Of a stretch of DNA of 64,000 nt, positions 4,172 to 61,283 are shown piece by piece (within the stretch, counting starts at the first letter, position 1; each line of letters begins with the position of its first letter). Position numbers and translations under genes: made by a program. Location: contig CAVVUN010000008.1 of NCBI GenBank assembly GCA_963751455.1, forward strand, positions 32,001-96,000. Reading direction: 5' to 3'. Source of the DNA: Nitrospirota bacterium. GTDB lineage: Bacteria > Nitrospirota > UBA9217. Below the pieces are notes generated by a model that was given only the letters and a program-made list of their open reading frames with translations, ran no database searches and was not told the origin of the DNA.

Positions 4172-5473
4172 ATGAGAAATAATATCGTTTCATTGGGCGC
4201 AGACGAACTGAAATACGAAATTCGGGAGATCGTAGCTGTTGCCAAGGAATTCGGCAAGCTTGGCCTCGAAATCATGTGGGAGAACATCGGGGACCCGGTC
4301 CAGAAGGGAGAAAAGATCCCGGACTGGATCAAGGAAATAGTCATCGCTGCCAACCGTGAGGACAGCTCCTACGCCTATTCACCGACCAAGGGACTTGAAG
4401 CAACACGCGAATTTCTGGCTCAGCTGGCGAACAGCAACGGCAAGGTAAGAATCACAAAAGAGGACATCATATTCTTCAATGGCCTCGGCGACGCAATCAG
4501 CAAGATCTACGGCCAGCTCAAAAAGGAATACCGCGTGATCGGACCCAGCCCTGCCTACAGTACGCATTCCTCGGCGGAAGCATCGCATGCGGGGGCCGAA
4601 TATATCTCGTATAACCTCGAGCCGCATCATCTCTGGTACCCCGATCTGAACGATCTGCGGATGAAAGTGAAGTACAATCCGGCGATCTCGGGCATCCTCG
4701 TCATAAACCCGGACAACCCGACGGGCGCCGTCTACCCGAAAGAAGTGCTCCAGGAAATCGTGGCTATAGCGCGCGAATACGACCTGTTCATCGTATGCGA
4801 TGAAATCTATATCAATATGGCATATAACGGAAAGCAAGCGGTTCCGCTCGCGGAAGTGATCGGCGACGTGTGCGGCATCTCGATGAAGGGCATTTCCAAG
4901 GAGCTGCCCTGGCCGGGGTCGCGCTGCGGCTGGATAGAAGTGTACAATCAGAGGAACGACCCGGTGTTCACGAAATACGTGAAGAGCATCCTCGACGACA
5001 AAATGCTCGAGGTCTGCTCCACAACCCTGCCGCAAAAGGTGATCCCCAAGATCTTCGCTGATAAGCGCTTCAAAGCGCATGTTGAACAGCGGAACAGAAA
5101 ATATGAGCGGCGCTCGAATGTCGCATACGATCTGTTGAAGGACATCAAAGGGATCGTGGTTAACAGGACGAACGGCGCGTTCTATATGACCGTGATGTTC
5201 GAGGAGGCCGTCCTCAACGGCAGCCAGTCTCTGCCGGTTAAGGATAAGGCGGTCAGAGAACAGGTCGAGAAAATCACTAATGGTGTGGCGCTCGACAAGC
5301 GGTTTGTCTATTATCTGCTTGCCACCACCGGGATCTGCGTCGTGCCGCTCACCGGGTTCAACTGCAGCTTGAAGGGCTTCAGAGTAACGCTTCTGGAAAA
5401 CGACGAAGCACGGTTTGAGCAGATATTCAAAACCATCCGCGAGAAAATCATCGAATATCTGAAAAGCGCGTAA
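4172..5473 (+). CDS. PLP-dependent class I/II aminotransferase (AlaA-like)
   Basis: NIGDP, INPDNPTG, DEIY, GISK(PLP lysine)..WPGSRCGW, GAFY motifs. Confidence 0.9.
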   Translation: MRNNIVSLGADELKYEIREIVAVAKEFGKLGLEIMWENIGDPVQKGEKIPDWIKEIVIAANREDSSYAYSPTKGLEATREFLAQLANSNGKVRITKEDIIFFNGLGDAISKIYGQLKKEYRVIGPSPAYSTHSSAEASHAGAEYISYNLEPHHLWYPDLNDLRMKVKYNPAISGILVINPDNPTGAVYPKEVLQEIVAIAREYDLFIVCDEIYINMAYNGKQAVPLAEVIGDVCGISMKGISKELPWPGSRCGWIEVYNQRNDPVFTKYVKSILDDKMLEVCSTTLPQKVIPKIFADKRFKAHVEQRNRKYERRSNVAYDLLKDIKGIVVNRTNGAFYMTVMFEEAVLNGSQSLPVKDKAVREQVEKITNGVALDKRFVYYLLATTGICVVPLTGFNCSLKGFRVTLLENDEARFEQIFKTIREKIIEYLKSA

Positions 5474-5547: not shown

Positions 5548-6267
5548 CTAAGCGTGTACTAACTTTCGCTCTGGAACAACCGACACAAATAGCATAATGC
5601 TAGGCCGGTCAGGACGGCCGTTCATCTTTTCAATGACGGCCGTAATCTGGCTCCTGTTATTCAACCAACGATGAAAGGCGTCTAGTAAACCTCGCCCGAT
5701 ATAGCCGATCTTCTTTCCATTGACAATGACCATGATCGCCTGCGGATCATAGAGGTTCCCGGGCTCCGGCTGGAGAGTTGCACTCATTCCAACAGCCAGT
5801 TCCATCGTCATTCCTTCATAATAACGAAAGCCTGCCACTTCTGCGAGTAGTTCGCAAGGTTCGTCCACCTGATCAAAGGGGTGAACGATGGAAAAACCAT
5901 CACTGGGCAGTTTTGCGCCAGAATAACCGAGCAGAGCAAAATCTGATATTTGCACCGAAGGCGAGATTCTCAGAGATTCAAGGTATTTGTTATAATCTGA
6001 ACGTTCGCGCGGAGGAAGGCGCAGCATGATCGTCTCTATGACACCTTCCTTATAAACACGATCAGTCTTTGGAAAGGCAGGATACCCCTCGAAACCGTTT
6101 TCCCGTGCTCTCTTGAAATCCGCGCTCTGAGTTAAATAGTGCAATTCAATGGCGTGATTCGTCTTAATAAGTTCGGCAACAATTCGGCGGGCTCGGTCAC
6201 CACCCTCGGGACCTTGCCAGACCAGATAAAGCCGTTGAGGCTCAATTATGTGTGTAATAAGATTCAT
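5548..6267 (-). CDS. HIRAN domain protein with HipS-like N-terminal domain
   Basis: C-terminal HIRAN signature VAGFRYY...LQPEPGNLYDPQAIMV...KIGYI; N-terminal LYLVWQ...GYPAFP...RLPPRERSDY; ATGA overlap with the kinase gene. Confidence 0.85.
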   Translation of the reverse strand: MNLITHIIEPQRLYLVWQGPEGGDRARRIVAELIKTNHAIELHYLTQSADFKRARENGFEGYPAFPKTDRVYKEGVIETIMLRLPPRERSDYNKYLESLRISPSVQISDFALLGYSGAKLPSDGFSIVHPFDQVDEPCELLAEVAGFRYYEGMTMELAVGMSATLQPEPGNLYDPQAIMVIVNGKKIGYIGRGLLDAFHRWLNNRSQITAVIEKMNGRPDRPSIMLFVSVVPERKLVHA

Positions 6268-7232
6268 GACCGCTGCTCGATTGTATCTATCAAAAACTGA
6301 CGTCGAAAACTGATGAGCTTCATGATGAATGCAGCCCTGGATTCCGATAACCGCGAAGGGACCCCGAATGAAGTCAGTCTGTCTACGAAATACTTTAGCT
6401 CATCAACATTAAAAAGTAAAGATTTTAACATTGCCTCTTTCTTTTCAGGATATCTCGCGATCAGCCGCACTAGCATATCAGAGTGACTAAGGCGGGTAGA
6501 ATCTCGCATATCCCACTTTATGTGGTGCGTACCTTTGTTAATATAATGAACAAGATACGCGGAATCATTGAACTTCGCAAAATTCTTTTCAACGATCTCG
6601 CCACCCATGGCAGTGCCATTGTCAAACGCGGGAGAAAAGGAGGCGCATCCCTTCATTACTTCTTCACCCTTCCATAAAATGCCCCAGTTATCTTGATGCC
6701 GGTCGGTGTTTCCAATCAAGGCATCAAATGTAAACATTTTACACCAAGACTCAATTCCATCCACCACTAACAAACCTCGATCCGTCATAGCTTTTGTCAG
6801 CGCCAACACTGACCTGAAATTGTGTTGAGTTCCTTTTTCTCTGTCGTAATTCTGAATCATTCTGACCATGTAATCGCCACCATCGACGTAGCGGACCGGT
6901 TGTTCCCCCGGATAACCATAGAACCACTCGATCAGTGCTCCGCTCTGATTCGTTGTGCTGTTAAAGGCCACAAACGCGGGCGGAACGGGAACATCCATCA
7001 GACCACCGATAAAGTAAGCAATAATTTCTATCCAGAATTGTTCCGGATATCGATGACTGGAATGCTTGAATAAGTAGCGATGGTCAGGGATAATAAAACC
7101 TGGGGCCCCGGTTTGTGGAGAGAACAATGCGTTCTTTGCTCGCGCTCCCTTGGGATAGGGGTCGAATTCGCTATCCGGCTGCCAAGTGCTGACGTCAATG
7201 GCTTCAGATGGTTGTTGTTTCTTGATAATCAT
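6264..7232 (-). CDS. HipA-like Ser/Thr kinase
   Basis: GARAK loop, YLFK, catalytic FDALIGNTDRHQDNWG, SPAFDNG. Confidence 0.88.
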   Translation of the reverse strand: MIIKKQQPSEAIDVSTWQPDSEFDPYPKGARAKNALFSPQTGAPGFIIPDHRYLFKHSSHRYPEQFWIEIIAYFIGGLMDVPVPPAFVAFNSTTNQSGALIEWFYGYPGEQPVRYVDGGDYMVRMIQNYDREKGTQHNFRSVLALTKAMTDRGLLVVDGIESWCKMFTFDALIGNTDRHQDNWGILWKGEEVMKGCASFSPAFDNGTAMGGEIVEKNFAKFNDSAYLVHYINKGTHHIKWDMRDSTRLSHSDMLVRLIARYPEKKEAMLKSLLFNVDELKYFVDRLTSFGVPSRLSESRAAFIMKLISFRRQFLIDTIEQRS

Positions 7233-7244
7233 GTCTGAGAAAAG

Positions 7245-8012
7245 TCAGAATCCCTCGCCCACTGGATGTATTGGATGAGCCCAAGCAGGTATCATTTTCC
7301 ATGCATCGCGCATACGGGCATGAAGCATTGCTGTTTTCGGTTCATATTGCCGGACGATCGTCCAAAACCGTTGTGTGTGACGTGGTTCGACAATATGACA
7401 CAGCTCATGATGCATCACATATCGGACCAAATCCCTGGGAATGAATAACAACTTGCTGTTAAGACTGATAACGCGGTCTTTTGAGCAACTTCCCCAGCGT
7501 GTGCGTTGGTTTTTAATGAGCAATCCTCTGAATTTCAACTTAGCTTCCGCGGAATGTGTTTGCAAGCTCAGTCGTAACGTTTCCTTGGCTCTGCGTGCAA
7601 TCCAACGTCTCAAGGCCGCATTGCAGCGTTCAGCATCGGTAATAGCGCCAAACACCAGAACGCGGCCCGGCCGATCAGTGCGCGCGCCGACAGTCTTACC
7701 CCGAGTTTCTCGGTATTCCACTCGCCATGATTCAGCAAGGGCTGGAAGATCAAAAGCTTGTGGCGGCGTTGACTTTTTTTCTCCAAGCAGATGCCGCACT
7801 TCATCAAATTGCGCAAGACGTGCCGCAATCCAATCGCTTTTCCCAGCAACCAGTTCTGCAACACGCTTGCGATTCAGTCCCTTTGGCGCGATAACGGTCA
7901 AGCCTGTTCGCGCTGTCATCTTGAGCCGTAAAGTCCGAGACTTAGCGGAAGAGAGGATTTCATAATCGAGATGTCGTCCATTGGGCAGGGCGATCTGTGC
8001 TGTACGCCCCAT
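7245..8012 (-). CDS. M48/SprT-like (YgjP/DUF45) metal-dependent hydrolase
   Basis: RTRWGSCS and HELCH (HExxH)...HTQRFW motifs; typical position after hsdR. Confidence 0.88.
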   Translation of the reverse strand: MGRTAQIALPNGRHLDYEILSSAKSRTLRLKMTARTGLTVIAPKGLNRKRVAELVAGKSDWIAARLAQFDEVRHLLGEKKSTPPQAFDLPALAESWRVEYRETRGKTVGARTDRPGRVLVFGAITDAERCNAALRRWIARRAKETLRLSLQTHSAEAKLKFRGLLIKNQRTRWGSCSKDRVISLNSKLLFIPRDLVRYVMHHELCHIVEPRHTQRFWTIVRQYEPKTAMLHARMRDAWKMIPAWAHPIHPVGEGF

Positions 8013-8015: not shown

Positions 8016-11000
8016 TTATTCCTTATCTCCTGGCTTATAATGCCTGCGCTTCAGCACCTGCAATAACGTGCTGATGAATGCCATGGCATCACCCGCAAGC
8101 AACCCGAGAATCGAAAATCGCGTAGCCAGGAGCAGCAATAAGGCCCTACTCAATTCGGGATCCACTGTACTGCTGTTCCACCAGCCAGGAAAACAGTGTT
8201 TATCCGCTTCCTCAAGAATGGCGGCTGCGACTTCGACAGCCTGCGTTTCAGTCAGCGCTATGTTCCGTCCCTTGATTTTGACTGCGAGCTGTTGAGCAAT
8301 CGGGCGCTTGACTTCCTCAACTGCCGCGCGCACGGCAACAGTCAGCGCCTCTAATTCCTGAAGCAGAGCAATGCCCGCCAGAGTGCCCGCCCGTTTCTCA
8401 TCTATAATACGCTGAAGCTTCTCTGAAAGCGTCCTGAAGTTTTCATCCTGATCCAGCCTGATACGAAGTTCAGCGGAAAGCATTGCCTCGATATCCAGCG
8501 CCTTTGCATCTGGCTTCTTATCTTTGAGCTTAGTCAGAAAATTCTCGTCTAATACATACGACGGAAACTCTTTATCCAACTCCTCCACGTCGATATGTTC
8601 ACGTATCAACTCCCGTGTGCGCGCCGCGTCTTCAGCCCTGGCTTCCATAGCCAACTCAGGGTAGAACTTCTTTCTGTAGAGTATGTACAGTTTGGTCAGC
8701 CACGCATAGTGACGCACATAGTCACGGAGAGCTTCATCCGGCTGCAAGGCCTCATACAGCACGCGCAGATTGCGATACCCGGTATCAAACTGCTTTTCGG
8801 CGCTTTCAACGTCCCGCAGGATTTTCATAGCGTTAATGTACGAATCATGCGACCCATCGCGAGGAACCGTTTCTTCCGGGAAAAGCGCCCACAGCGCATC
8901 AAACTGCTTTCGGAAGTGTTCACGGATACTCTCAAAGGGAAATGCAATATCGCCCAACTCCTCAGGCCTGTAGTTCAGCGCCTCATTCAGGTTGTCGAAG
9001 ATTCCGTAGTAGTCGAGGATCAGACCATGACCTTTCAATTCATTATATGGACGGTTCACGCGGGCGATAGTTTGCAACAGGCCATGATCACGAAGACTTT
9101 TGTCCAGATAAAGCGCTTGCAAGATAGGCGCGTCGAATCCGGTCAAAAGCATGTCACATACGACAAGCATTTCGACTTTTCGAAAGGGTTTGTCCTGGTG
9201 CTCTGGCTGGTCGGACTTCGCGGGGATCAGAAATTCGTTCAGCAGCTTCTTTCGTTGAGCCTCGCCAAGATAAAGCGTCTTTACCTCGGCCGAATCATCC
9301 TTGGGCGCTTCCGAGATCACCGCCATGACAGCCTCAGACCCGAGCCGATCTCGTAACGCCTTCGTGTAGAGTTCAACGGTATCCTTGTTTTTTGTAACCA
9401 ACATTGCTTTGAAGCCGTTGACGCGAACATGTTCATTAAAATGCTCTACCGCGTCATCGGCGATTTGATTTACACGCTTGGGCAATTTGAGCAGCACATC
9501 AAGGGTGGACGATTCGCTGATCAGTTTGTTCTGCTCTGCCACGGAAAGAGGACCGAATTCTTTCTTAAAAGCAATGTCCAGCTTAGCACCATTAAGTTGC
9601 CAATCAGTCTTACGCGGCTGCCAGTGAATGGGCTTGACCACGCCGTCGCGCAAGGCATCGGTGATCGTATAAGGCTTGCCCATATAACGCTCGATGGTAC
9701 CGTCGTCCTTTTTCTGCCCCCAGGCCAAAGGTGTATTGTGGTCGTCCTTTTCGATCGGCGTACCGGTGAAACCGAACAACGAAGCCCCTGTCACGGCTGC
9801 GCGCATATATGTGCCCAGATCGCGCTCCTGCGTCCGGTGCGCTTCGTCAGCCATGACGATAACGTTTCGGCGCTTGTTGGTGATGTTCTTCGGCATCCCC
9901 TCGAACAGGTGTACGGTGGTGAGGATCACGCCCCGGTAATCGCCCGCAAGTTTAGCCTCCAAATCGCGCTTGCTGTCCGCGACAAGCACATTTTTCGTGC
10001 CCGTTGCCATAAGCTCGCGGTCCATCTGATCGCCCAACTGCTCACGGTCTACCAACAGGATTACAGTGGGCGATTTGAGTTTCGGATCTTCCCAGAGGCT
10101 GCGGGCGGCGTAGATCATAGTCAGCGTTTTGCCGGAGCCCTGCGTGTGCCAGATCAGGCCGCGCCGCTTCTCCTGCGGCAGGGTAAGGTCAGTGGCTCGG
10201 AGCATGATGTCCTTCACTGCCTGATACTGCTGGTAACGCACCACCACCTTTTCGGTCTTGCCGTCCTTGGTGACAAAAACGATGAAGTGGCGGATGAAGT
10301 CCAGCATGTTGGCCCGGTCGAATAGTCCATAGAGCGACACCTTCATTTCATCGAACTCGTCGATTTCGTGCGGCCAGGGATCGCGCCATTGCAGCCAAAA
10401 CTGCAAGCGACGCCCCGGCACACCGTACATCATGCGGGTTTCGTTCACACCCACGCCGTAGGCGTTGGTGTAGAATAGCTGGTTGATCTCCTCGGAATAC
10501 ATACCGAGTTGTTGTGCACCTTCGCGCCAGTCCGGTTTGCTGCGGCTGGCGGTCTTTGCCTCGATCACCACTACCGGAATGCCGTTGATCAGTAGCACAA
10601 TATCCGGTCTCCGGGGCGAGTTGCCCTCCACCGGAAACTGATTCGTCACCCACCAAGCGTTGGCATCCAGATCGTCATAGTCGATCAGTCGCACGTCTTT
10701 CGTGGTTTCAGCCGGATCAAATTGATGATTGACACCTTCCTTCAGCCATTTGAGCCATTGCGCATTATCTCGGCAACCGCGTAGCTTGGTAATGATTGCG
10801 TCAACCCGCGCATCATCCGTGAGAATGTCCGGGTTAAGTGCTCTCAACTTTTCCCGCAACAACGGCAACAGCAGCACCTCGCGCTCATCCGGACGCAGCG
10901 CGGTCACCTGCTCGCGCGAACGATAGGTCCAGCCCAGCGACTTCAGTTGTAAGTGTTCGATAATTTCCCGTTCAACTGTCGTCTCTTCGTTGAACAGGCG

Positions 11001-11039
11001 CTGAACTTCCGGCACGGCTGGTGTGTTCTGCTCATTCAT
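8016..11039 (-). CDS. hsdR: Type I restriction enzyme R subunit
   Basis: RPDIVLLINGIPVVVIEAK nuclease motif, HTQGSGKT, DEAHR, GFTGTP, MLLTGFDAP, QTIARVNR; start moved to ATG 11039 (GAAGGAG RBS, overlaps hsdS stop). Confidence 0.95.
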   Translation of the reverse strand: MNEQNTPAVPEVQRLFNEETTVEREIIEHLQLKSLGWTYRSREQVTALRPDEREVLLLPLLREKLRALNPDILTDDARVDAIITKLRGCRDNAQWLKWLKEGVNHQFDPAETTKDVRLIDYDDLDANAWWVTNQFPVEGNSPRRPDIVLLINGIPVVVIEAKTASRSKPDWREGAQQLGMYSEEINQLFYTNAYGVGVNETRMMYGVPGRRLQFWLQWRDPWPHEIDEFDEMKVSLYGLFDRANMLDFIRHFIVFVTKDGKTEKVVVRYQQYQAVKDIMLRATDLTLPQEKRRGLIWHTQGSGKTLTMIYAARSLWEDPKLKSPTVILLVDREQLGDQMDRELMATGTKNVLVADSKRDLEAKLAGDYRGVILTTVHLFEGMPKNITNKRRNVIVMADEAHRTQERDLGTYMRAAVTGASLFGFTGTPIEKDDHNTPLAWGQKKDDGTIERYMGKPYTITDALRDGVVKPIHWQPRKTDWQLNGAKLDIAFKKEFGPLSVAEQNKLISESSTLDVLLKLPKRVNQIADDAVEHFNEHVRVNGFKAMLVTKNKDTVELYTKALRDRLGSEAVMAVISEAPKDDSAEVKTLYLGEAQRKKLLNEFLIPAKSDQPEHQDKPFRKVEMLVVCDMLLTGFDAPILQALYLDKSLRDHGLLQTIARVNRPYNELKGHGLILDYYGIFDNLNEALNYRPEELGDIAFPFESIREHFRKQFDALWALFPEETVPRDGSHDSYINAMKILRDVESAEKQFDTGYRNLRVLYEALQPDEALRDYVRHYAWLTKLYILYRKKFYPELAMEARAEDAARTRELIREHIDVEELDKEFPSYVLDENFLTKLKDKKPDAKALDIEAMLSAELRIRLDQDENFRTLSEKLQRIIDEKRAGTLAGIALLQELEALTVAVRAAVEEVKRPIAQQLAVKIKGRNIALTETQAVEVAAAILEEADKHCFPGWWNSSTVDPELSRALLLLLATRFSILGLLAGDAMAFISTLLQVLKRRHYKPGDKE

Positions 11040-12294
11040 TAAGCACTCCTTCGGGAATGCGTATCTTGCCGGTGAGCAGGTTTTGAAGGAGGCACTTATT
11101 GACCTCCTGCAACGAGGAAAGTCTTTTTTTGACAGAATCCAACGCCGCATATGCGGCAGCAACGGTAGATACTATTTCGGTTTGTCTTGTCGGTGATGGA
11201 AGAAGTATCGGCAAAGACAGAATGTCCCTGCGCTTTATCTTTACCATACTTCCACTTGTACCACTAGCGCGTGATTTTAGCCAGCGTCTCGCATTGGAGC
11301 TTCGAAGCAATAGCTCTGCGAAAGCTGGCGATACGATGTTGCTATTGACACGAATCCGCATCATTAAATCAGGATAGTAAGCAACTTCGGGCTGCCCAAC
11401 ATATCTTCCCGCTCTGCCAACGAGTTCGGGGGTGTTTGATCGACTAACCAGAATATCATCAATTTCGAGCTTGAATGGCAAAAGCCCATCATCGTCTATT
11501 GGTGCTGGTTTGATACCGTCAGAGTTGAATCTTTCATCGGTCAATGCATCCAGCGACAAGACCCATGCACCGGTTGGATCTTGGGGGCATGCAGGTGAAT
11601 AGCCATTTCGTATTTTTTCCCTGATAATGCTTGCGAACGTCGTGGGTTGCCATCTTTCATCCGTGGACGGAACAAGCAGTGCAGCGGTTAGAGATCGTGT
11701 AAACTCCCGCGTCGCATCCAACTCTGCTTTTGTTTTGGCAATGGCATCACTGGCCAGTTTCAGGGCACTAGCAATGCGACGTTGTTCGTTCTCCTCAGGA
11801 ATACGAATCAATATTTTCTTGATTTCGCGGCGGGAAACCTCGAGAAAAGTTGTTCCGGCTCCGAGTCTAACCAAGGTTGGCCTTATGATTTCGATTAGAT
11901 AAAAGAGATATTCCGCAGAGAAACCAGCTTTTGGAACAAGGGTAGCAAAACCTTGGTTAATGGCCATTGGCACGCGATTGATCTTTGCAGCGCCAATCGT
12001 CGCCCGGCTGGTCATTAGCACTGAATTCTCGGGTACCAGCGTTGACTGCCTCAAACCTGATCGAGAAATATAGCGTTCAGTCGAGACAATTTCATTACCC
12101 TCGGTTCCTGTAATGTCTGTTGGCGTCGCCCATGGTATTTCCTGCGGATGCCAATAGTCAGCGATGTCGGTGTCTGGTGTACCACCACCCAGAACATTCA
12201 CGGCTTTGGCCAAGGTATCAGTTGGCCATTCGCAGCTGTGGAAGAACTGCGACAGAGGCAGTTTGTATATAACGTCTTGCATAGGGTGGCTCAT
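11032..12294 (-). CDS. hsdS: Type I RM specificity subunit
   Basis: Two TRDs (GGGTP...SRATIG...NQGF; DILVSRSN...GRA) each followed by conserved helices (PEENEQRRIA, PSPTRQTEIV...LLQNLLTGK). Confidence 0.92.
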   Translation of the reverse strand: MSHPMQDVIYKLPLSQFFHSCEWPTDTLAKAVNVLGGGTPDTDIADYWHPQEIPWATPTDITGTEGNEIVSTERYISRSGLRQSTLVPENSVLMTSRATIGAAKINRVPMAINQGFATLVPKAGFSAEYLFYLIEIIRPTLVRLGAGTTFLEVSRREIKKILIRIPEENEQRRIASALKLASDAIAKTKAELDATREFTRSLTAALLVPSTDERWQPTTFASIIREKIRNGYSPACPQDPTGAWVLSLDALTDERFNSDGIKPAPIDDDGLLPFKLEIDDILVSRSNTPELVGRAGRYVGQPEVAYYPDLMMRIRVNSNIVSPAFAELLLRSSNARRWLKSRASGTSGSMVKIKRRDILSLPILLPSPTRQTEIVSTVAAAYAALDSVKKRLSSLQEVNKCLLQNLLTGKIRIPEGVLNE

Positions 12295-14474
12295 ACTGAT
12301 GCTCCGATGTTCAACGCTTTCAAAATCTGATCGAGTTTCTCCTTTGCCTCGGCATTGGCTTTTTCTACGATTCGGAGGTTTTTGATTGCCTCATCAAGCG
12401 GCACAACCTTCTCCGGCTCATACGTATCCACGTACCTTGGAAGGTTCAGGTTGAACTCGTTCTCCTCAATCTGGACTTTGTCCACCACGGCAAAGTAACG
12501 GCGCGCTTCGCCCGGGTTAGCAAGAATACGGTTTAGGTCAGTAGCGGCTTCCCTCAAGTGTGTGATTTCACGTTCGGCTGTGCGTTTGACCTCCTGCTCA
12601 CGGCTGTCACGCTCTTCCTGGAGCTTCCTCAACTCCTTCACTGCTCTTGCGACCTGCTTGGTTCGGTCTTTGAGCGCGTCGATAAGTTTTTTTCGGGCGT
12701 CATCGTACGTCTTCTTTGGCTTTGCCAGCTTGGACTTTTGAGCTGTTTTTTTGCTGCGCTCGGCAGCCTGAATTTTCGCCTGCATATTCTCAACGGCGGC
12801 CTTCAACGGGACCAGCGGATGGAAGAACGGATGTTCAGGAGTGATGGCTTCATCCACAGACTTGGCCTTGAAGTCCAGCGCATCGAGGACGGCATGTTCA
12901 GCTTCTAAATCTGTCAGCGGGGCCAGCACCGGGCCGAAGGCATCCTCGATGTCTTTTAGCCGTTCATCACGATGTTCTTCTACCTCGCGGATCAATTGCG
13001 CTTCATGTTCGACAATCAGTTGCTTAGCCAGTTCCAAATCACCGAATGCTCGCCAAGGCACCAGGATACGCATCAGGTCCGATGGTCGCAGCAGGTTTTG
13101 GGGATTACCTTTCTGATAGTGGCGGGACGCCCAGATCATGAGCGTCTTGCCCTTGCGGGCCTTGGGTTTGTTCTTGTTCAGCATTATCAAACAGGCAGGC
13201 ACGCCGTTGCCGTAAAAGAGTTTGGAGGGCAGCACCACGATGCATTCGATAAGATCAGCCTCGATGAAACCGCGCCGGATTATGTATTCCGCATCCGCCT
13301 TCTGGTTCTGTCCGTCTTCCTCTTCCGTCTGCTCGGGCTGGCCCCGGAACAGCACACCCTGGGACATGACCACCATCCCCTTCCCCGCTTCTCCGGTTTT
13401 CGGATTGAGGTCTTTCAGCGAATCCGCGATCTGCTGCAACCATGCCCAGTCACCATTCGAAGCAGGCGGCAGTCCGAAAGAAAATCGTCCAAACTTGTCT
13501 CCGGAGACTACAGTGTCATACCCCCAGTCTTCCAGCGAGAATGGTGGATTCATTATGATTCGGTCGAATTGTTTAATAACATTATTGCGTAAGAGATGGC
13601 GAGGGTCGCGCAGTGAGTCACCCTGCTTGTGGTCCCAAACGGGTACGCCATGCAGGATCATGTTGATGCGCGAGATGTTGTAAGTGGCGACGTTAGATTC
13701 CTGGCCGTGCAGGATCAACTGCCGTACATCTCCGCCATGCTTCTTCACGTAACGGAGGCACTGCAGGAGCAGACCGCCGGAACCATGGGACCAGTCGCAG
13801 ATGCTCATGCCGGGCTTGGGCTCCAGCATCTCGGACATAAGAAAACCCACTTCGGCCGGAGTATAGAACTCACCGCTGGATTTGCCGGCTTTGCTGGCGA
13901 AGTTGCGGATCAGGTATTCATAAGCATTGCCGAACAGGTCGTCCGAGACATGAGCGCGGTCGAACTTCTGGCTGCTGAAATGATTAATGAGGTTTACGAG
14001 TTTATCGCGCGGGAGTTCATCCTGCTTGTTGAAATCAATCTTGCCGGTCAGGATGCCGTCGAAATTATTCTGACGGTGGGCGTTGGCCCGCTCAATGGCA
14101 AGCATGGCATCGTTGAGCGCCTGGCCGAGATGGCCTTTTGCTGTCCGTGCAACAGTATCCCAGGCCGACTTTTCCGGGACAACGAAGTGGTGCAATTCTG
14201 GTTGTCGAGCAAGATACTTGGCTTGTTTTTCAGATATCCCGGCAACGTTCAGTACGGTGGTTTCACGACCCACATCTTCCAAAAAACAGTCGTTGATTCG
14301 TTTATAGAAGAGCAGTGCGAACACATAGCCACGGAATTCCGAGTGATCCGCATTGCCTCGTAGAATATTTGCAGCCGTATCGAGGTAACTCTCGAGTTCG
14401 CTTTGAGTCATGCGCCGTACAGGCCGAACTACAATAGGTTTATCGAGAGTGGATAGTAATTCGTCAAGTTTCAT
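12291..14474 (-). CDS. hsdM: Type I RM N6-adenine methyltransferase with long C-terminal coiled-coil insertion
   Basis: AANILRG, GNAYEYLI, GEFYTP, motif I DWSHGSGG, motif IV NPPF, C-terminal FNLNLPRYVD. Confidence 0.93.
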   Translation of the reverse strand: MKLDELLSTLDKPIVVRPVRRMTQSELESYLDTAANILRGNADHSEFRGYVFALLFYKRINDCFLEDVGRETTVLNVAGISEKQAKYLARQPELHHFVVPEKSAWDTVARTAKGHLGQALNDAMLAIERANAHRQNNFDGILTGKIDFNKQDELPRDKLVNLINHFSSQKFDRAHVSDDLFGNAYEYLIRNFASKAGKSSGEFYTPAEVGFLMSEMLEPKPGMSICDWSHGSGGLLLQCLRYVKKHGGDVRQLILHGQESNVATYNISRINMILHGVPVWDHKQGDSLRDPRHLLRNNVIKQFDRIIMNPPFSLEDWGYDTVVSGDKFGRFSFGLPPASNGDWAWLQQIADSLKDLNPKTGEAGKGMVVMSQGVLFRGQPEQTEEEDGQNQKADAEYIIRRGFIEADLIECIVVLPSKLFYGNGVPACLIMLNKNKPKARKGKTLMIWASRHYQKGNPQNLLRPSDLMRILVPWRAFGDLELAKQLIVEHEAQLIREVEEHRDERLKDIEDAFGPVLAPLTDLEAEHAVLDALDFKAKSVDEAITPEHPFFHPLVPLKAAVENMQAKIQAAERSKKTAQKSKLAKPKKTYDDARKKLIDALKDRTKQVARAVKELRKLQEERDSREQEVKRTAEREITHLREAATDLNRILANPGEARRYFAVVDKVQIEENEFNLNLPRYVDTYEPEKVVPLDEAIKNLRIVEKANAEAKEKLDQILKALNIGASV

Positions 14475-14970: not shown

Positions 14971-15858
14971 TCAAGCTTTCGCATTGCCCGACACTGATTT
15001 CCTTGCTATGCAGTAGTTACCCCTCATAAGTTGAATAAAGTTGAACATTTGATCAGCGAATGCACAAAGAATTTGTACTTGAAATCCTTTTTTAAGACGA
15101 TTCCGCGACAATGTGTCTACTGCTAAAAACCCTACGTCCTCCGTCGCTCCATCCTGACCTACCTTATTAGTATCTGCATACCGAACCGGGACTACGATTG
15201 TGCTCTTATAATAATTTATCCAATTAGGCCGCTGATTTCGATACTCTTTGTCTTTTGTTAAATCTGGCGAGTGATAAAATGAAGGCCGACCTGGAACGAA
15301 TTTTAATGAATCATCGAATGCTGAATTTGCTCCAGTTTTTACTTCAAACACTTTTGGATGGTCATCATCTCTGGTAGACTTCATTTCGCTGCGAACATAT
15401 GTTTCGCAGAAATATCTATTGCCATTCTTAGTAAGCAACTTAAATGTAACTACGCAAGGGCGGCGTGTGAGTGTGGAATATATTACTGCTATTCTTTGAC
15501 AAACAGCCTCGAGAACCGTTCTCTCGTTCTGCAATAGAACGGTAGTATCAGAAATTGGATCTCTTTCAGAAAACATCTGGCAGAGTGTATTACGATATAA
15601 ATGATTGATCTCGTGCATCTGATAAAAACATTTTTCTACCGCCTGTTTATCAGAGCGTACACGAAAAGAATAGAGTGCTGTTGCGAAGAAAATTAGAAGA
15701 AGCAAACAGTAGAGGATCTTCTGATAGAGTTCAATTTGGACTCCATGAAGCATTTCGTAAACAATGTATCCGAGTCCAATTATGGATGCAATAGAACCAG
15801 CAAAAGCCACCACGCGGCTATCGAGGATATCATAAATTGACGCAGTTGTTCTTATCAT
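14971..15858 (-). CDS. Hypothetical membrane protein: two N-terminal TM helices and a GAF-like C-terminal domain
   Basis: Two hydrophobic segments in the first ~65 aa; YKSTIVVPV...VGFLAVD...ILCAFAD resembles a GAF C-terminus; AT-rich. Confidence 0.65.
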   Translation of the reverse strand: MIRTTASIYDILDSRVVAFAGSIASIIGLGYIVYEMLHGVQIELYQKILYCLLLLIFFATALYSFRVRSDKQAVEKCFYQMHEINHLYRNTLCQMFSERDPISDTTVLLQNERTVLEAVCQRIAVIYSTLTRRPCVVTFKLLTKNGNRYFCETYVRSEMKSTRDDDHPKVFEVKTGANSAFDDSLKFVPGRPSFYHSPDLTKDKEYRNQRPNWINYYKSTIVVPVRYADTNKVGQDGATEDVGFLAVDTLSRNRLKKGFQVQILCAFADQMFNFIQLMRGNYCIARKSVSGNAKA

Positions 15859-16033
15859 TTTTTCAAGAGTGATGCTGTAACGACTGAAGCGATTGCACGC
15901 GGTTTACACTCGTAGATCGAGAACTTACTATCGTGAAGGGTTAATTGATTATATTGATGTTCAATTTATTGTCAAGGGAAAATACAACGATTCAGAGTTG
16001 AAGTACATCAGAGAAAAAATGGCGAGCGTGTGC

Positions 16034-16180
16034 TTACATCTTCACTTTTTTCACCTTCCTCGTTCCTTCGTACAATTCATACTCCAATAACCTGCACTCG
16101 ATGCCGTTGTTCCAGAACGGAATGCTGCGCTTCGGTTTTATGAGTGCCGGACTGCCGTTAAACATGCCGTGATGCCTTTG
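16034..16180 (-). pseudogene. Orphan 3' fragment of a THUMP RNA methyltransferase gene (second copy of the end of 19233..20399)
   Basis: Translates KPKRSIPFWNNGIECRLLEYELYEGTRKVKKVKM* versus KPKRSIPFWNSGIECRLLEYELYEGTRKVKKVKPDG* in the intact gene; upstream part similar but with deletions. Confidence 0.9.
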
Positions 16181-16252: not shown

Positions 16253-19096
16253 TCAGCTACTGATTGCGCTGCCTCCTCTCCTCTCGCTCATCAACGGATC
16301 GACCAAGGCGCGGTATGCATCTTCCCCTCGCGGCCACAATTTTGCGATGAGGTCCATGCCTGCGTGCCGGTAAATGTCGACCCATTCATCCTTGTACAAA
16401 ACGGAAAGTTTCGGATTCAGAACATACCACCCCTGCCGCTCGCGCCGAAAAAGCTTCCGGCTGTACGGGTTCGTGCTGTCCTCTTCATTTTTCGACAGAA
16501 GCCCTGAGAGGTAGGTCCTCTTTTTACGGTACGCGGGCACGACGCTCTCCGGCAGCAATGCCGTCATCTCGGCAAGCTTGACTGCATTGATGGACGCCAT
16601 GATCGGGTCGCTGAAGCGTCTGTGCAAAAGAGCGAAGATAACGGCAAACAGGAGAAACTCTCCCTGACTGGCGTCAAGCTTTACCAGCCGTTCGTCGACT
16701 TTGAGGCTTACGTGCGACGGCGCGAGCATCTCGTGCACCGAAGCAAACTGTTTCGCGGCGTATTCCGGTTCATGGACAGCGCGTTCCAACGCCCCGAGCC
16801 AGGCCGTAACGCCGTAGCTGTCAACAAGCTCCCCGTCCGCGCCCGCGGCAAGCAGTTCTTTGACTAGAGCAGCGTTTCCGGGCAGCGCCGCCAGCATAAG
16901 CGGCGTCTTGTTGAAAGCCGTGCGAAGATCGATTCCGTATGTCTCGCACTGCCTCAATTTATCCTTATAGAACCTCCCCGTGTAATCCTGATAATTTCTC
17001 TGGATTTGACCTGCGCGCTGCTGGTTGTACAGCTCATAATTTAAAAATAGATGTCCGCTCACATTGTCGAAATACGGCTTCGCCTTATCGAAACCCGATT
17101 GATAGAGCTGTTCGAGAAGCTGGCGCTTGTCGTAGAAGAGAGCGTATTCCAGAAGCGTTTTTTTCGGCTTCTGCGACACTTCTTTCGGGTCTGTTGCGCG
17201 GGTCAGCAGATAGAGGACCCGATCAGCCGTGCATACTTCCCAGGGCACTGGCTGGGTTTTGAGGATGTCGCGCCTGATCTCTTCCGCCTGTTCAAGCCTG
17301 CCCTGAAGTTCGAGTTTTCGCGCTTCCGCCTGCCACTCTTCCCTGCTCGATTGCTTTGCGTCAACATCAACGTCTTCCCGCGCGTCCTTTATCCCGAGTA
17401 AGCCGATCAGCGGATGGTTCAGGTCGCTCTCTATCAGGTACAGCTTCTGAACGGCGCGAGTGATTGCCACGTAGAGAGAGTTCACGAAGAATTTGTAGAC
17501 CTCGAGCGACTTGTCCGTCTTGTCCCGGGGCCTGCGGTACTCAAGGTCGCCGGACAGGTCCTCCTCGCTTACCCCGTCCACGAGCTCCCCGAATAGGGAG
17601 CGCTCCTTCGAGATAAAGTTCACGAGAACCACGTTTTCGTATTCCAGCCCTTTCGCTTCATGGATGCTGAAGAGCAGCGGTGTGTCAAAAAACTCCCGCG
17701 CCGCGGGCTTGTCCTCGTCCCGCATGACCAGGACCGCGAATTTTGTCGAGCGTCTTGTCTTTTTGCCGAGTTCCCGTTTCGCCTTGTCCGTGTCCCGTAC
17801 GAGCACGAGTTCGCCTGCCGCGTCCGAAACGCTTTTCATAAGGTAATTGCTTTCCCGGTCTATGGACCCGAACCGCTTCTGCTTGATCCGGAGCAGCGTG
17901 TTCGCAAGTCCTGTCACTTCCGCCGAATTTCTGAAATTTGACTGGAGCATCCGAGTCACTTCGGCGGCCTGAAGTTCCTCCGCATTGTAAAGCATGGTCT
18001 TGAGGCCGCTCCAGGAAAAGTGATTGGGATGCACGATCTGATTGGAGTCCCCACACAGGATGAAATTCCTAAATTCCTTGAGGCTGTGAAGGATCAGCTG
18101 AAGCTGAACGTTCGTGATGTCCTGCACCTCGTCCACGACGACGAAATCATGAACTTGTTTTATCAGTTGCAGGTATTCGTGGGCCAGAATATTGGGATCG
18201 TAGAGCCCGTTTTCCTTGAGGAAGACGAGATACTTTTCAAAAAGCGTATAGACCAGTTCGCGCTCTTCGGAAAGAAAGATGGACTGCCGGACCCCGAGAG
18301 AGAGATACTCCTCGCGGGAAAGCCAGGGTTTGTCCACAACGGAGCCGGTCAGGACTCCCCTGAACTCCTCATACAGCCTGTGGGCATCCGATACCCGCTG
18401 GTGCTTCGGGATCCGCATGATCCAGCCTGCGAACGCGAGATAGGAGATTTCTTTTCCTTCCGGCACCCTCAGGGTCTCCAGAAATTCGCGAAAGGAAAAA
18501 AAGGAAATTTCCTGGTCTTCATTCTCATAATGATTCGCGTAGTAGAGGTTGCGGGAGTTGTCCGCAAGGTAGCGCGAGAGGGTCACGTACAGAATCCGCC
18601 CCTGTGCCTGCTTCATCTTTTCAAGGGTGAGCGCGGTCTTTCCGCTCCCTGCCGGGCCGATGATGAGCACCGGCGGCAGGCGCTGAAAAGTGTCCTGCTG
18701 GTCCGGATCGAAGGAAATAATTTTATCGAGAAAATGAAAACGGGTAAGGGCAGGGTTGACATACCGGAGAGCGGGCAGTTCTTCGGGTGATTCGGGCGCT
18801 TTATCCAGCGCGGGTATCTTTGCTTCGTCGACGGGGATGCCCCGGAGAAATTTGGATTTCTCGTAGGCGTGCTGATGAACGACCTCCAGGATCAGGGCAT
18901 ATTGTTCACCGCCGAAGGCCATAAGCTTGAACAGCAGCCGGTTCGTGTCGTCGAGCTTCGCCCGGTACAGGCCATGGTCCGCCAGCTTCTTGACGTCGGC
19001 GGAATAGAAATCGCCGTTCTCAAGAAAGGTTCGGACCTTGCCGTACTGCCGCTTTACCTTTGACGTATCGAGGTCGATGTATTCGATTACTTTCAA
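16253..19096 (-). CDS. SF1 (UvrD-like) helicase with N-terminal RelE/ParE-like domain and C-terminal ankyrin repeats
   Basis: GPAGSGKT, VVDEVQD, GDSNQ, NFRNS, SIHEAKGLEY, LYVAITRA; ankyrin TPLMLAALPGNAALVKELLAAGAD; N-terminal DVKKL..HGLYRAKLDDTNRLLF. Confidence 0.85.
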   Translation of the reverse strand: MKVIEYIDLDTSKVKRQYGKVRTFLENGDFYSADVKKLADHGLYRAKLDDTNRLLFKLMAFGGEQYALILEVVHQHAYEKSKFLRGIPVDEAKIPALDKAPESPEELPALRYVNPALTRFHFLDKIISFDPDQQDTFQRLPPVLIIGPAGSGKTALTLEKMKQAQGRILYVTLSRYLADNSRNLYYANHYENEDQEISFFSFREFLETLRVPEGKEISYLAFAGWIMRIPKHQRVSDAHRLYEEFRGVLTGSVVDKPWLSREEYLSLGVRQSIFLSEERELVYTLFEKYLVFLKENGLYDPNILAHEYLQLIKQVHDFVVVDEVQDITNVQLQLILHSLKEFRNFILCGDSNQIVHPNHFSWSGLKTMLYNAEELQAAEVTRMLQSNFRNSAEVTGLANTLLRIKQKRFGSIDRESNYLMKSVSDAAGELVLVRDTDKAKRELGKKTRRSTKFAVLVMRDEDKPAAREFFDTPLLFSIHEAKGLEYENVVLVNFISKERSLFGELVDGVSEEDLSGDLEYRRPRDKTDKSLEVYKFFVNSLYVAITRAVQKLYLIESDLNHPLIGLLGIKDAREDVDVDAKQSSREEWQAEARKLELQGRLEQAEEIRRDILKTQPVPWEVCTADRVLYLLTRATDPKEVSQKPKKTLLEYALFYDKRQLLEQLYQSGFDKAKPYFDNVSGHLFLNYELYNQQRAGQIQRNYQDYTGRFYKDKLRQCETYGIDLRTAFNKTPLMLAALPGNAALVKELLAAGADGELVDSYGVTAWLGALERAVHEPEYAAKQFASVHEMLAPSHVSLKVDERLVKLDASQGEFLLFAVIFALLHRRFSDPIMASINAVKLAEMTALLPESVVPAYRKKRTYLSGLLSKNEEDSTNPYSRKLFRRERQGWYVLNPKLSVLYKDEWVDIYRHAGMDLIAKLWPRGEDAYRALVDPLMSERRGGSAISS

Positions 19097-19232: not shown

Positions 19233-20399
19233 TTACCCGTCAGGTTTCACTTTTTTAACCTTCCTCGTCCCCTCGTACAGCTCATACTCCAGGAGCCTGC
19301 ACTCTATGCCGCTGTTCCAGAACGGGATGCTCCTTTTCGGCTTGAGGCTCACCTTTTTTGCAAGCGCGGGGTTCCCAGTGAACACATAGCCTGTATATCC
19401 TTTACACTTGTTCTTGAAGAAATCGCCGATGCCTTTGTAGAGGCCTTCAAGACTGGCAATCTCTCCCATGCGTTCGCCATACGGAGGGTTCATCACGATA
19501 ATGCCTGACCCGGACAAAGGCGTATCGGCATAGTCGCACACACTGAATTCGATCAAATGTTCGACTCCGGCCGTCGTCGCATTCTTCTTTGCGGCTTCTA
19601 CGGCCTCGGTACTTATATCGGTTGCGATGATCCTGCCGGAAATTGATTTTTTCGCTTGCTGTTTTCCGGCCTCCCTCGTTTTATTCCACGCTGACTCGTT
19701 GAATTCTTTTATATGCATAAACCCGAAGTTGCTTCTGAGCAGGGCCGGAGGCCGATTGAGGCCTATCAGAGCGGCCTCAATAGCGAGCGCTCCGCTGCCG
19801 CACATGGGATTGATAAAGTGGCCCTCTCCATGCCAGTTCGTGGCCAGCACCACCGCTGCTGCAAGCGTCTCCTGCATCGGGGCTTCCAGCGGGATCTTCC
19901 GATATCCCCGGCGGGACAGCGGCTCTCCTGAGGTATCGAGATAGACAACTGCCCGCTCTTCCTTCCAGTACAGATGCACAACTGACCTGTCCCGGTCAGG
20001 CCCGGAGTCCGGCCGCCTGCCGGTTTTCTGTTTAATACGATCAACAATCGCATCCTTCGCCTTCAGGGTCGCGTAGCGGGTATCCCGTATTGTTTCGTTT
20101 TCAACACCGGAGGTTACACAGACGTATCCCTCTCCGGGGATCAGCGCTTCCCATTCGATTTTCGAAAGCGCGCGATACAGATCTTCGGCATTCTTTGCTT
20201 TGAATTCTGCAAGGGTGAGCAAAACGCGGTGTGCGGTACGGAGAGAGACATTCAGCAGAAACGTGTCCTCGAGAACGCCTTCGGTCTCCACGCCGGCAAC
20301 CTGTTCGGACAATACCGGAAAGTTTAGCGACAGCAGTTCCTGTTTTAAAAAAGGAGGGATGCCCTTGGCGCAGGTTATTAGGATTTTTGATTTGACCAT
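19233..20399 (-). CDS. THUMP-domain class I SAM-dependent RNA methyltransferase (RlmL/YpsC-like)
   Basis: LRTAHRVL, LDTSGEPLSRRGYR, APMQETLAAA, PMCGSG, NPPYGER. Confidence 0.92.
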   Translation of the reverse strand: MVKSKILITCAKGIPPFLKQELLSLNFPVLSEQVAGVETEGVLEDTFLLNVSLRTAHRVLLTLAEFKAKNAEDLYRALSKIEWEALIPGEGYVCVTSGVENETIRDTRYATLKAKDAIVDRIKQKTGRRPDSGPDRDRSVVHLYWKEERAVVYLDTSGEPLSRRGYRKIPLEAPMQETLAAAVVLATNWHGEGHFINPMCGSGALAIEAALIGLNRPPALLRSNFGFMHIKEFNESAWNKTREAGKQQAKKSISGRIIATDISTEAVEAAKKNATTAGVEHLIEFSVCDYADTPLSGSGIIVMNPPYGERMGEIASLEGLYKGIGDFFKNKCKGYTGYVFTGNPALAKKVSLKPKRSIPFWNSGIECRLLEYELYEGTRKVKKVKPDG

Positions 20400-22888: not shown

Positions 22889-22998
22889 TTTACCCCGTTA
22901 GAGGTCGAAATAATGCTGATTACCAATCATTAAAATATTTGGATAACTTGCCTTGGTGCCTGCAAGAGAGCACTCAGGACGACCTCTAACGGGGTAAA
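22889..22998. repeat. 110-bp MITE-like element with perfect 19-bp terminal inverted repeats
   Basis: TTTACCCCGTTAGAGGTCG (22889-22907) and CGACCTCTAACGGGGTAAA (22980-22998) around an AT-richer core, between mreB and mreC. Confidence 0.8.
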
Positions 22999-36341: not shown

Positions 36342-36746
36342 TTATTTGAAATAACCAACGTCTCTCAGTTTTTGTTCTGCCCTGTCAAGAACTTCTGGCG
36401 CAAAGAGAGTACGGTACGGCTCTCGACGAATGATCGCTTCAACAGACAAATCTAACCGTCCTAATCGCCACAACCTTTCAAAGCCCTCGTAACTCCCCAT
36501 GTATAACCGTTCAATCGTACCGCGGTCACTAAGGAGTCGCATAAATCCAGTGGGGTTATAGCCAAGCGTTTGACATTCACGAGTAGCGCGCAAAAATTCA
36601 TCTCGCAACAGTATTTCCAGATCACGCTTTGACAAAAGGATTTCTCCGCTGCGGTACCTGAACGGCCTTATACATTTGAATTTGCTGGGAGTCATGAGGT
36701 CAAACAGCTCGGAAGCGCCCCCTGCCATCCGATCCCGACGGATCAT
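36342..36746 (-). CDS. Small conserved hypothetical protein at the end of the Druantia-like operon
   Basis: GYNPTGF...GFERLW..GRLDLSVEA...LF...A..KL..GY pattern; ATGA overlap with vsr; start uncertain. Confidence 0.65.
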   Translation of the reverse strand: MIRRDRMAGGASELFDLMTPSKFKCIRPFRYRSGEILLSKRDLEILLRDEFLRATRECQTLGYNPTGFMRLLSDRGTIERLYMGSYEGFERLWRLGRLDLSVEAIIRREPYRTLFAPEVLDRAEQKLRDVGYFK

Positions 36747-37153
36747 TTGGAGATCACGCTCCCAAGTCTATTCTTTACCGCGCCCGGCTTCTTTTCTGCC
36801 TCGCATTCCCATACCACAACGACGCGCCATCCCATTTTGCGTAGTGCAAGAACATGTTCTTTATCACGGAGCACATTACGCCTCAGTTTCGATCCCCAGT
36901 ATCGCCGTTTTGTCTTGGGTATTATTCCTTCGCGACATCCCTTGTGTTGATGCCAAAAGCAACCATGAACAAATATCACGGTTTTATACTTAGGCATCAC
37001 AATATCGGGCCGACCGGGCAGATCAGCCCTGTGGAGCCTGAAGCGGTATCCCATACGATGCAGCAAAGACCGCACTATGTGCTCCGGCTTCGTATTTTCT
37101 GAGCGAATGCGAGACATTACATCGCTCCGCTTTTTGGGAGACCAGATATCTAT
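36743..37153 (-). CDS. vsr: Very short patch repair endonuclease
   Basis: MSRIRSENTKPE, LPGRPD, FVHGCFWH, VWEC; conserved N-terminus DIWSPKKRSDV extends to an ATA at 37153 (alternative ATG 37117). Confidence 0.93.
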   Translation of the reverse strand: MDIWSPKKRSDVMSRIRSENTKPEHIVRSLLHRMGYRFRLHRADLPGRPDIVMPKYKTVIFVHGCFWHQHKGCREGIIPKTKRRYWGSKLRRNVLRDKEHVLALRKMGWRVVVVWECEAEKKPGAVKNRLGSVISK

Positions 37154-38319
37154 TTTGTCCTCCGTTTTCCTTTCGATTTCCTGTTTATAGACTCTATCTT
37201 CACTATCAGGGTTTTCATTGAATTTGCCACGACCTTGGCCAATGGCACAGGCACACCATTGCTGACCATTTTAAATGCAGTCGTCAAAAACACATTCTTG
37301 GGCAGAATATAGGATTCTGGAATGCCCTGAATTCGCATCACTTCACGCAGCGAAAGACGCCTCGGTTCCCATGGATGCAAGTGCACTTCATTATTTCCAT
37401 AGCATGCTGTCGGGCTGTAACGGTACCGATGAAGCCTCTTGAACGATTTCCCTGTGCTATCACCTTCTTTAACCCGAAAGAATTTATTCGAGTATGAATT
37501 AAATATGTTATTCGCGTTGGGGATTCTGTTCCGGTCACTTTTCCGCACCAAGCAGCTGGAGACGCAGAGCTTATCTGGTACGTCTTTTGGCCTTTGCGGC
37601 CGCTCGCCCAAACGGACTTGGCTTGGCCATTTATATGCTTTTTTTGCGTTCGAAAACTTACTTGCTGGCCATGGAAACCAAGACGCGTTAGGGTCAAACG
37701 CATGCTCCCGGAAGTAGCGATTAGCGAAACTCTTTTTGATCCCAACAACAAATAACCTCTCGCGGTGCTGCGGTACCCCGTACTCAAGCGCGTTCAAAAT
37801 CCTCTCGTCAATAGCATATCCCGCGCGTTCCAGCTTCCGCTTCACGCGGTTGAGAAACTTGCGGTGCCTCGTGAATCTCGCCAAACCGCTGACGTTTTCC
37901 AAAACAAAGAATGTCGGTTTAATCTGGCATAACAGCTCAACATATGTTTTCGTGAGTCTTCCATTCACTCCGTTATGGCCTTTATGCTGGCCTGCTTGGC
38001 TAAAATCTGGGCATGGAGGAGCACCTACCACTCCGAATAAGTGTGGCCTTTTGCGGGGGAAGGCATCTGCCAGGATTTTTGCATGCGTCAACTCCTCGAT
38101 TGAGGATTCTTCAATAACTATACTGCAGTGCGATTGTTTCCTCCGTCGGCGCCATGATGGGTATGCCTTCTTGTACAGATCCAAAAAAGCGGTGCTATGC
38201 TCATTGACCCATATGACCCGGAAACCCTCCTGTTCAAACCCCATATCCAGGAAGCCTCCGCCAGTGAAGAACGACAATAGAGGAATTGCCTTTGACGCGT
38301 TGTTGTTAGACGAGTGCAT
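37150..38319 (-). CDS. DNA (cytosine-5) methyltransferase (DruM-like)
   Basis: FTGGG, PPCPDFS, ENV, PQHRERLF, RRLSLRE, NGVP motifs; start set to ATG 38319. Confidence 0.93.
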   Translation of the reverse strand: MHSSNNNASKAIPLLSFFTGGGFLDMGFEQEGFRVIWVNEHSTAFLDLYKKAYPSWRRRRKQSHCSIVIEESSIEELTHAKILADAFPRKRPHLFGVVGAPPCPDFSQAGQHKGHNGVNGRLTKTYVELLCQIKPTFFVLENVSGLARFTRHRKFLNRVKRKLERAGYAIDERILNALEYGVPQHRERLFVVGIKKSFANRYFREHAFDPNASWFPWPASKFSNAKKAYKWPSQVRLGERPQRPKDVPDKLCVSSCLVRKSDRNRIPNANNIFNSYSNKFFRVKEGDSTGKSFKRLHRYRYSPTACYGNNEVHLHPWEPRRLSLREVMRIQGIPESYILPKNVFLTTAFKMVSNGVPVPLAKVVANSMKTLIVKIESINRKSKGKRRTK

Positions 38320-38345
38320 GTTCGTAGTTCTCACCTGTTTCTTCC

Positions 38346-61251: not shown

Positions 61252-61283
61252 ATTATGATTAACAAGCAGCTTGTTTTGTTTTA

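Follow-up and report, generated by a model that had tools for sequence, protein, structure and literature searches.

What might a single bacterial gene be doing that joins the predicted fold of a messenger-cutting toxin to a helicase motor and keeps no partner beside it? The question is raised by a gene for a 947-amino-acid (aa) protein in a Nitrospirota bacterium of lineage UBA9217, within a window (the whole stretch of DNA that was analysed) of 64,000 nucleotides (nt), positions 32,001 to 96,000 of contig CAVVUN010000008.1. A first-pass annotation had described the gene as a fusion of a RelE-like nuclease, a superfamily 1 (SF1) helicase and ankyrin repeats, and had suggested an anti-phage protein that acts by itself. 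I propose, with a little more confidence than doubt, that a predicted RelE/YoeB-fold domain and a helicase of the TRANK1 type make up a stand-alone, one-gene abortive-infection defence, in which the helicase switches on a restrained mRNA-cutting domain. The anti-phage role is plausible but unproven.

A predicted toxin fold, a motor and a variable tail

The gene is an open reading frame (ORF; Table 1), and AlphaFold2, given an alignment of 85 sequences, returns a confident model of the full-length protein (mean predicted local distance difference test 89.9, predicted template modelling score 0.89). The family libraries say little of it: Pfam finds a partial UvrD-type match and sub-threshold ankyrin matches only, and the matches of PADLOC and NCBIfam are at the level of helicase motifs, far under the cut-offs.

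In the predicted model the first 90 or so residues adopt the RelE/YoeB fold, the top matches by Foldseek and VIA being YoeB, RelE, YafQ and HigB, which places them in the RelE/ParE superfamily, as the first pass had supposed. Five residues conserved in 81 sequences (K37, R45, R53, H76 and Y78) make up a predicted RNase site, with the basic strand residues and the C-terminal His/Tyr of the RelE-type mRNA interferases. Their register against RelE and YoeB, where the corresponding residues have catalytic roles, is taken from profile alignments. Profile comparison of the domain prefers RelE/YoeB to ParE.

The motor has its full set of SF1 motifs, as had been claimed: Q, I, Ia, II, III, IV, V and VI are all present (Q133, GPAGSGKT 147-154, YVTLS 170-174, DEVQD 322-326, GDSNQ 349-353, NFRN 387-390, EAKGLEY 480-486, YVAITR 542-547), with two predicted RecA folds, and the motifs are invariant or nearly so across 85 relatives. 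The predicted fold is nearest to Rep, UvrD and PcrA. In a search with the whole model the DNA helicases Rep and UvrD take the top ranks, and the RNA-acting SF1 helicases Upf1, IGHMBP2, SETX and HelD are also among the matches.

Directly after the helicase, where TRANK1-like proteins show weak Pfam TPR matches, comes a pair of helices (aa 585-612) with W588, E591, A592, L595, G599 and A604 conserved; it is modelled as a hairpin, in agreement with the TPR-like segment described before. Then follow a helical region, one canonical ankyrin repeat (aa 730-757; Pfam Ank 19.6 bits, under the 21.1 cut-off) between degenerate helical flanks, and a domain of about 130 aa. The ankyrin repeats of the first pass are thus reduced to one, with no array, and recognition of a phage protein by ankyrins has little to support it in a member with about one repeat. 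A better candidate for the sensor may be the basic C-terminal domain, which conserves R857, R860, E871, R885, G889 and Y891, the three arginines among them. Its secondary structure in the model, by DSSP (helices 812-827, 838-845 and 860-869, strands 883-887 and 890-893), fits the H1-S1-H2-H3-wing topology of a winged helix; an hhalign comparison with HARE-HTH is weak (E 0.07). Nothing informative as to its identity came from the Pfam scan of members, two PDB profile searches, the HARE-HTH comparison or a search for short homologues, and the whole-model fold searches, filled by helicase matches, did not probe the tail.

Judged by sequence, the RelE domain and the helicase are the constant unit of the family and the tail is variable, because the N-terminal domain is kept in 82 of 87 representatives of at least 780 aa and the C-terminal domain in 75. 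Five of the 12 representatives without it bear multi-repeat ankyrin arrays (25 selected representatives were scanned). Two other members, P0130 and P0138, are extended by DUF1186 and a SEC-C motif.

A widespread gene without a partner

The family is large: there are 4,431 matches among 7,997 scored candidates, and 433 clusters at 50% identity with E < 1e-30. In species-representative genomes at least 194 of 601 candidate stretches were confirmed, and the 80 loci kept span Nitrospirota, Proteobacteria, Bacteroidota, Chlorobiaceae, Verrucomicrobiota, Deinococcus and others. Most sampled members belong to free-living bacteria of many phyla and lie on genome contigs rather than known plasmids. Close to home the distribution is patchy. 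The gene is carried by 7 of the 61 genomes searched (the host's own and its relatives), one of them with three copies and the source genome with two, and was not found in the other 54. The second copy in the source genome (L001 10473-13316; G000:C15) is 69% identical and sits amid MNT-HepT, AbiEii, BrnT and DUF2283 genes.

No partner travels with it. Among ORFs of at least 90 aa at 83 loci (smaller ones lay outside the clustering) there is no conserved neighbour, and hence no antitoxin gene such as a type II toxin-antitoxin (TA) system would have; the largest cluster of neighbours touches only 9 of the 83 loci and includes two-component proteins. In the window the gap between rlmL and the start of the helicase gene is 137 nt. 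The description as a stand-alone protein is borne out.

The family has also entered plasmids, with 134 matching records (101 from Shigella, 13 from Escherichia, 10 from Piscirickettsia). The homologue on the virulence plasmids of Shigella and enteroinvasive Escherichia coli (EIEC), called in RefSeq merely 'UvrD-helicase domain-containing protein' (WP_010921718.1; NC_002698.1; L230 8938-11850), comes from an intact, full-length gene of 2.9 kb and is 43% identical over 909 aa. It retains the five N-terminal residues and the helicase motifs, and has no N-terminal extension in the aligned frame. The gene is divergent from the deacetylase-capU-virK-lpxM operon and, in pWR501, lies near vapBC, ccdAB and yacA and also near ospG and ipaH9.8. 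Shigella 'orf186' is a different gene, which belongs to the neighbouring operon. The helicase type recurs in a Paraclostridium plasmid protein of greater divergence, whose annotation is that of a TPR protein and whose N-terminus matches weakly (E 0.017). In bacterial-type proteins of this more distant kind (L232 4521-7670 and P0283) the helicase class is joined to tails resembling TPR or MIT, and the N-terminus is RelE/YoeB-like (E 0.017; Pfam YoeB E 0.026), suggestive of a wider RelE-helicase-repeat superfamily.

The relationship to TRANK1

The first-pass annotation found the protein reminiscent of eukaryotic TRANK1-like proteins. By profile comparison this is a specific sequence relationship, stronger than was claimed. 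A search with aa 120-625 of proteins longer than 1,658 aa gave 26 matches, mostly plant, protist and fungal, and one shark TRANK1-like protein. The core profile of the family scores TRANK1-like proteins at 68-152 bits, versus 36 for the host's UvrD/PcrA-like protein, and plant versions align with it through the hairpin. In the reverse direction, when the genome's ORFs are ranked with a profile from the TRANK1-like set, its two family members come at the top (171 and 167 bits), followed by UvrD (50) and an AddA-like protein (35), in a comparison where the TRANK1-like proteins were chosen by the same query and there were only three outgroup helicases. A TRANK1-type core with the start of the downstream TPR is thus found on both sides. 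A quick tree of 46 rows sets the family (99) and the eukaryotic set (92) apart from each other and from the outgroup, and the eukaryotes are sister to the family, not nested in it; with three long-branch outgroups the tree speaks to relative distance, not to the direction of transfer.

What aligns is the helicase core, inserts peculiar to the family included, and the hairpin behind it. The rest differs: TRANK1-like proteins have 1,660-3,940 aa, their ankyrins are N-terminal (479-559 in the shark protein), whereas the single repeat here is C-terminal to the helicase, and nothing in them matches the bacterial C-terminal domain. The 947-aa protein thus has neither the N-terminal ankyrins nor the extended C-terminal repeats of the large eukaryotic architecture.

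Has the RelE-like domain gone along with the motor? In the 2,958-aa shark protein the best match to the family's N-terminal profile lies 223 aa before Walker A and scores 10.9 bits, versus 5.5 for the best of 300 shuffles, none of which reached it; in one fungal protein a weak match of 2.9 bits falls at that offset too, giving a candidate RelE-like domain about 200-220 aa before Walker A in both. A profile of the eukaryotic upstream region matches RelE/YoeB at E 0.0008 (probability 24%), with E 0.07 for the family's N-terminal profile, 0.17 for ParE and 0.93 for HARE-HTH. The position of R45 is Glu in the shark protein and plant versions look degenerate. Among the other 24 long proteins there is no comparable match except in one bacterial-looking protein, no match to the domain reaches E < 1e-4, and the shark protein has no Pfam RelE-type domain. 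I consider it fairly likely that a RelE-like domain is common to the family and to eukaryotic TRANK1-like proteins.

A table in PMC6880163 places TRANK1 among interferon-stimulated genes, and a passage of PMC8517014 has chicken TRANK1 induced by influenza. A bolder view, offered tentatively and more apt to fail than to stand, is that TRANK1 has its bacterial prototype in this family, with a unit of RelE RNase, SF1 helicase and TPR running from bacteria to fungi, plants and vertebrates, that the family is in bacteria a one-gene immune effector shutting off translation, unrecognised on Shigella virulence plasmids, and that vertebrate TRANK1 is a ribosome-directed RNase-helicase or the descendant of one.

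Defence or something else

How would such a protein work? Because no antitoxin gene is conserved, the restraint on the RelE domain would have to come in cis, from the remainder of the protein. Its helicase and basic C-terminal domain would bind foreign or single-stranded nucleic acid; in the minority form the trigger might instead be a phage protein bound by ankyrin or TPR arrays. Turnover of ATP would then release the RelE domain, which would cleave mRNA on the ribosome, and the infected cell would be arrested.

The surroundings speak for defence mainly near home. The gene does head a defence island, as was claimed, with type I restriction-modification (R-M) genes and a PDC-M03 pair, and in the host family 7 of 8 copies (a count with no control set) lie near R-M, HIRAN, MNT-HepT/AbiEii/BrnT, HicAB, NOV_C/SNF2, DUF4258 or insertion sequence (IS) genes, DUF4258 and NOV_C being conflict domains. 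The eighth lies amid metabolic genes, and beside the one scanned copy from another family no defence gene was recognised. The test across phyla ran PADLOC at 1e-25 on 265 ORFs lying up to about 2.9 kb from the gene; another 50 of the nearest ORFs had Pfam names and entered the count, unscanned, as negatives. One ORF of 2,448 aa, those containing N and the locus L072 were excluded, and at 7 more loci generic matches (SNF2, kinase, chaperone-like, DEDDh, RecD2) were disregarded. The control set is small and is not matched by phylum: 150 of 176 ORFs, drawn from 16 complete arbitrary 10-kb windows of the host phylum and from part of one more, with one R-M/PrrC locus and one generic match.

Several results weigh against a defence role. 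Of 79 loci, 10 have specific PADLOC matches, and of 16 control windows, 1 (p = 0.68); by ORF the figures are 13 of 315 and 4 of 150 (p = 0.60), and neither difference is significant. Many homologues stand singly among housekeeping genes, and none of 50,697 phage records matches. Full-length identity between phyla, about 37-73%, is high for a gene in an arms race. By sequence alone the RelE assignment is weak (E 0.37), and ParE_like is found in 10 of 81 members. The anti-phage claim thus has the local context and the host family on its side and the cross-phylum test not.

High conservation, housekeeping neighbours and the RNA-acting helicases among the structural matches would suit an accessory factor of translation or RNA quality control, whose helicase engages stalled ribosomes or R-loops in general stress and whose RelE domain severs the message without any trigger specific to phages. 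It is hard to square such a factor with a gene that is patchy, multi-copy and plasmid-borne, lies beside TA and IS genes in the host family, and has a motor with Rep and UvrD structurally first; I regard the idea as improbable, though well short of negligible. The TA neighbours in the host family, the lack of an antitoxin, and retention on the Shigella and Escherichia plasmids, near vapBC, ccdAB and yacA in pWR501, invite another thought, that the protein is a self-contained addiction toxin for plasmid maintenance, toxin and antitoxin fused, in which loss of the element lets the inhibitory part decay or deprives it of its ligand. But most sampled copies are on genome contigs, and an ATP-dependent motor of 947 aa would seem unnecessary for that end, so this is unlikely.

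Nor do I put much weight on a helicase of DNA repair or recombination, in which the RelE-fold domain would only bind nucleic acid or, like ParE, topoisomerase. Rep, UvrD and PcrA are indeed the best structural matches and the fold is common to ParE toxins, but the basic, His and Tyr residues of an RNase are conserved, the profile prefers RelE/YoeB, the host's own UvrD/PcrA and AddA-like proteins score far lower, and the gene was not found in 54 of the 61 genomes searched. It is too much to expect, finally, that the protein is an effector aimed at eukaryotes. That idea is prompted by the ankyrin and by homologues on pathogen plasmids (Shigella/EIEC, Piscirickettsia), near ospG and ipaH9.8 in pWR501; it is very improbable for a family living mostly in free-living bacteria, whose Shigella copy has the same N-terminus without extension, and for a protein with about one ankyrin repeat.

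An insertion site between rlmL and an aminotransferase gene

The first pass placed the gene in a cassette of its own, bounded by a repeat. The repeat is real (98 nt, copies 85% identical), but it is the last 33 or so codons of the upstream rlmL-like gene and not a transposon end. It was rejected as an IS or transposon end, or a classical att site, being coding rlmL sequence with only two occurrences in the genome. The copies differ by 14 synonymous changes and 1 non-synonymous, a pattern that suits an orphan displaced as an allele of a related lineage better than one left by a duplicate in decay. The Pfam, PADLOC and NCBIfam scans recognised no integrase or transposase among the island's ORFs.

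A genome of another genus (G025) has at the same site rlmL, the helicase gene, a HIRAN remnant (its last 33 codons only) and the aminotransferase, so the junction is no one-off recent insertion; a frameshift suspected in its split gene proved to be an assembly gap of N. Twelve rlmL loci lack the helicase gene: 4 run straight into the aminotransferase, 1 has a different insert, and 7 show no aminotransferase in the stretch fetched. The different insert (G011, L138 2200-5490) is of 3.3 kb, and its ORFs have no Pfam matches. From this variable occupancy it follows that the site is a variable insertion hotspot, here some 13.7 kb in size, which recombination through the ends of rlmL has probably assembled, with no integrase recognised.

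Table 1. Position of the gene, its domains and the surrounding island in the window
Feature	Position	Strand	Basis or remark
947-aa RelE-like / SF1 helicase / TPR-hairpin / ankyrin / C-domain protein	16253..19096	-	open frame, TTG start; AlphaFold2
Predicted RelE/YoeB-fold domain, aa 1-90	18827..19096	-	Foldseek and VIA; conservation in 81 sequences
SF1 helicase, predicted UvrD/Rep fold, TRANK1-type sequence, aa 120-575	17372..18739	-	
TPR-like helical hairpin, aa 585-612	17261..17344	-	alignable to plant TRANK1-like proteins; model
Single canonical ankyrin repeat with degenerate flank, aa 721-773	16778..16936	-	Pfam, model
Basic C-terminal domain, family-specific, aa 785-912	16361..16744	-	putative winged-helix-like topology; DSSP; no library match
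Live 3' end of rlmL-like gene (repeat copy 1)	19246..19343	-	
Orphan rlmL 3' end (repeat copy 2)	16041..16138	-	own stop just beyond
rlmL-like THUMP methyltransferase	19233..20399	-	right border of insertion
Perfect sigma-70 consensus TTGACA-16-TATAAT	15948..15975	-	after orphan end, facing rest of island
295-aa low-GC ORF	14971..15858	-	no family match
Type I R-M hsdM, hsdS, hsdR	8016..14474	-	
YgjP-like metallopeptidase	7245..8012	-	
HipA-like kinase and HIRAN protein	5548..7232	-	PADLOC PDC-M03A/B
Aminotransferase	4172..5473	+	left border; directly after rlmL in empty-site relatives

The 295-aa ORF of the island (39% GC; no match in Pfam, PADLOC or NCBIfam) shows by eye two hydrophobic N-terminal segments, making it a candidate membrane defence protein. 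Elsewhere in the window a second defence cluster (36342-46742, minus strand) holds Druantia DruE (38346-43844; PADLOC DruE4, 1744 bits), a DruM-like cytosine methylase, DruL4-like and DruF-like proteins and Vsr. A perfect 19-nt inverted repeat with arms 72 nt apart lies just 3' of mreB (22889-22998), and genes for tRNA-Asp and tRNA-Val lie at 61175-61359 (minus strand).

Comparison with known systems

Fusions of RelE/ParE domains to SF1 helicases were reportedly mentioned by Anantharaman and Aravind (Genome Biology, 2003), in an account that may overlap with this family. In the texts covered by a literature search, supplements lying outside it, there is no description of this family, of its Shigella member or of a RelE domain in TRANK1. 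Term searches of the available text of Gerdes 2025 (PMC11980606), of the BECR preprint 10.64898/2026.08.28.747851 and of PMC2701414 did not find the word 'helicase'; PMC3710099, in the part available, has HEPN-helicase fusions. A large family (433 clusters), with no end-to-end model in PADLOC, NCBIfam or Pfam, can now be named, and through its sequence link to TRANK1-like proteins a eukaryotic helicase that is little understood gains a small model in bacteria. A function is also proposed for the intact 2.9-kb gene of the Shigella/EIEC virulence plasmids.

UvrD, Rep and PcrA share the motor fold, but at 12-19% identity, without the additional toxin and tail domains and without the patchy distribution; the protein falls far short of their NCBIfam equivalog cut-offs (PcrA 30.9 versus 911 bits, Rep 24.4 versus 951, UvrD 19.8 versus 1144). 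Nhi, AbiO and GajB of Gabija are likewise SF1 helicases, but their weak PADLOC matches are partial and confined to helicase motifs (GajB 45 bits, AbiO 34, Nhi 30), with no full-length match and no GajA partner, and here there is an effector domain of the RelE type. The ribosome-dependent mRNA interferases RelE, YoeB, YafQ and HigB differ from the present protein in that it has no antitoxin gene, a fused helicase and a tail of 370 aa; Cami1 joins RelE to a CARF domain, which is absent here. A RelE-like domain before a helicase in a defence locus is also the layout of CoCoNuT CnuH and of the helicase neighbouring Tiamat type I-K (PMC11090510; bioRxiv 10.64898/2026.09.30.754977). RelE-helicase fusions have therefore already been reported inside CoCoNuT and Tiamat loci. 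For the stand-alone family, its motor of the TRANK1 type and its member on Shigella plasmids, the literature searches turned up no description. By their descriptions, those fusions belong to multi-gene McrBC or Tiamat loci, whereas the family proposed here stands alone.
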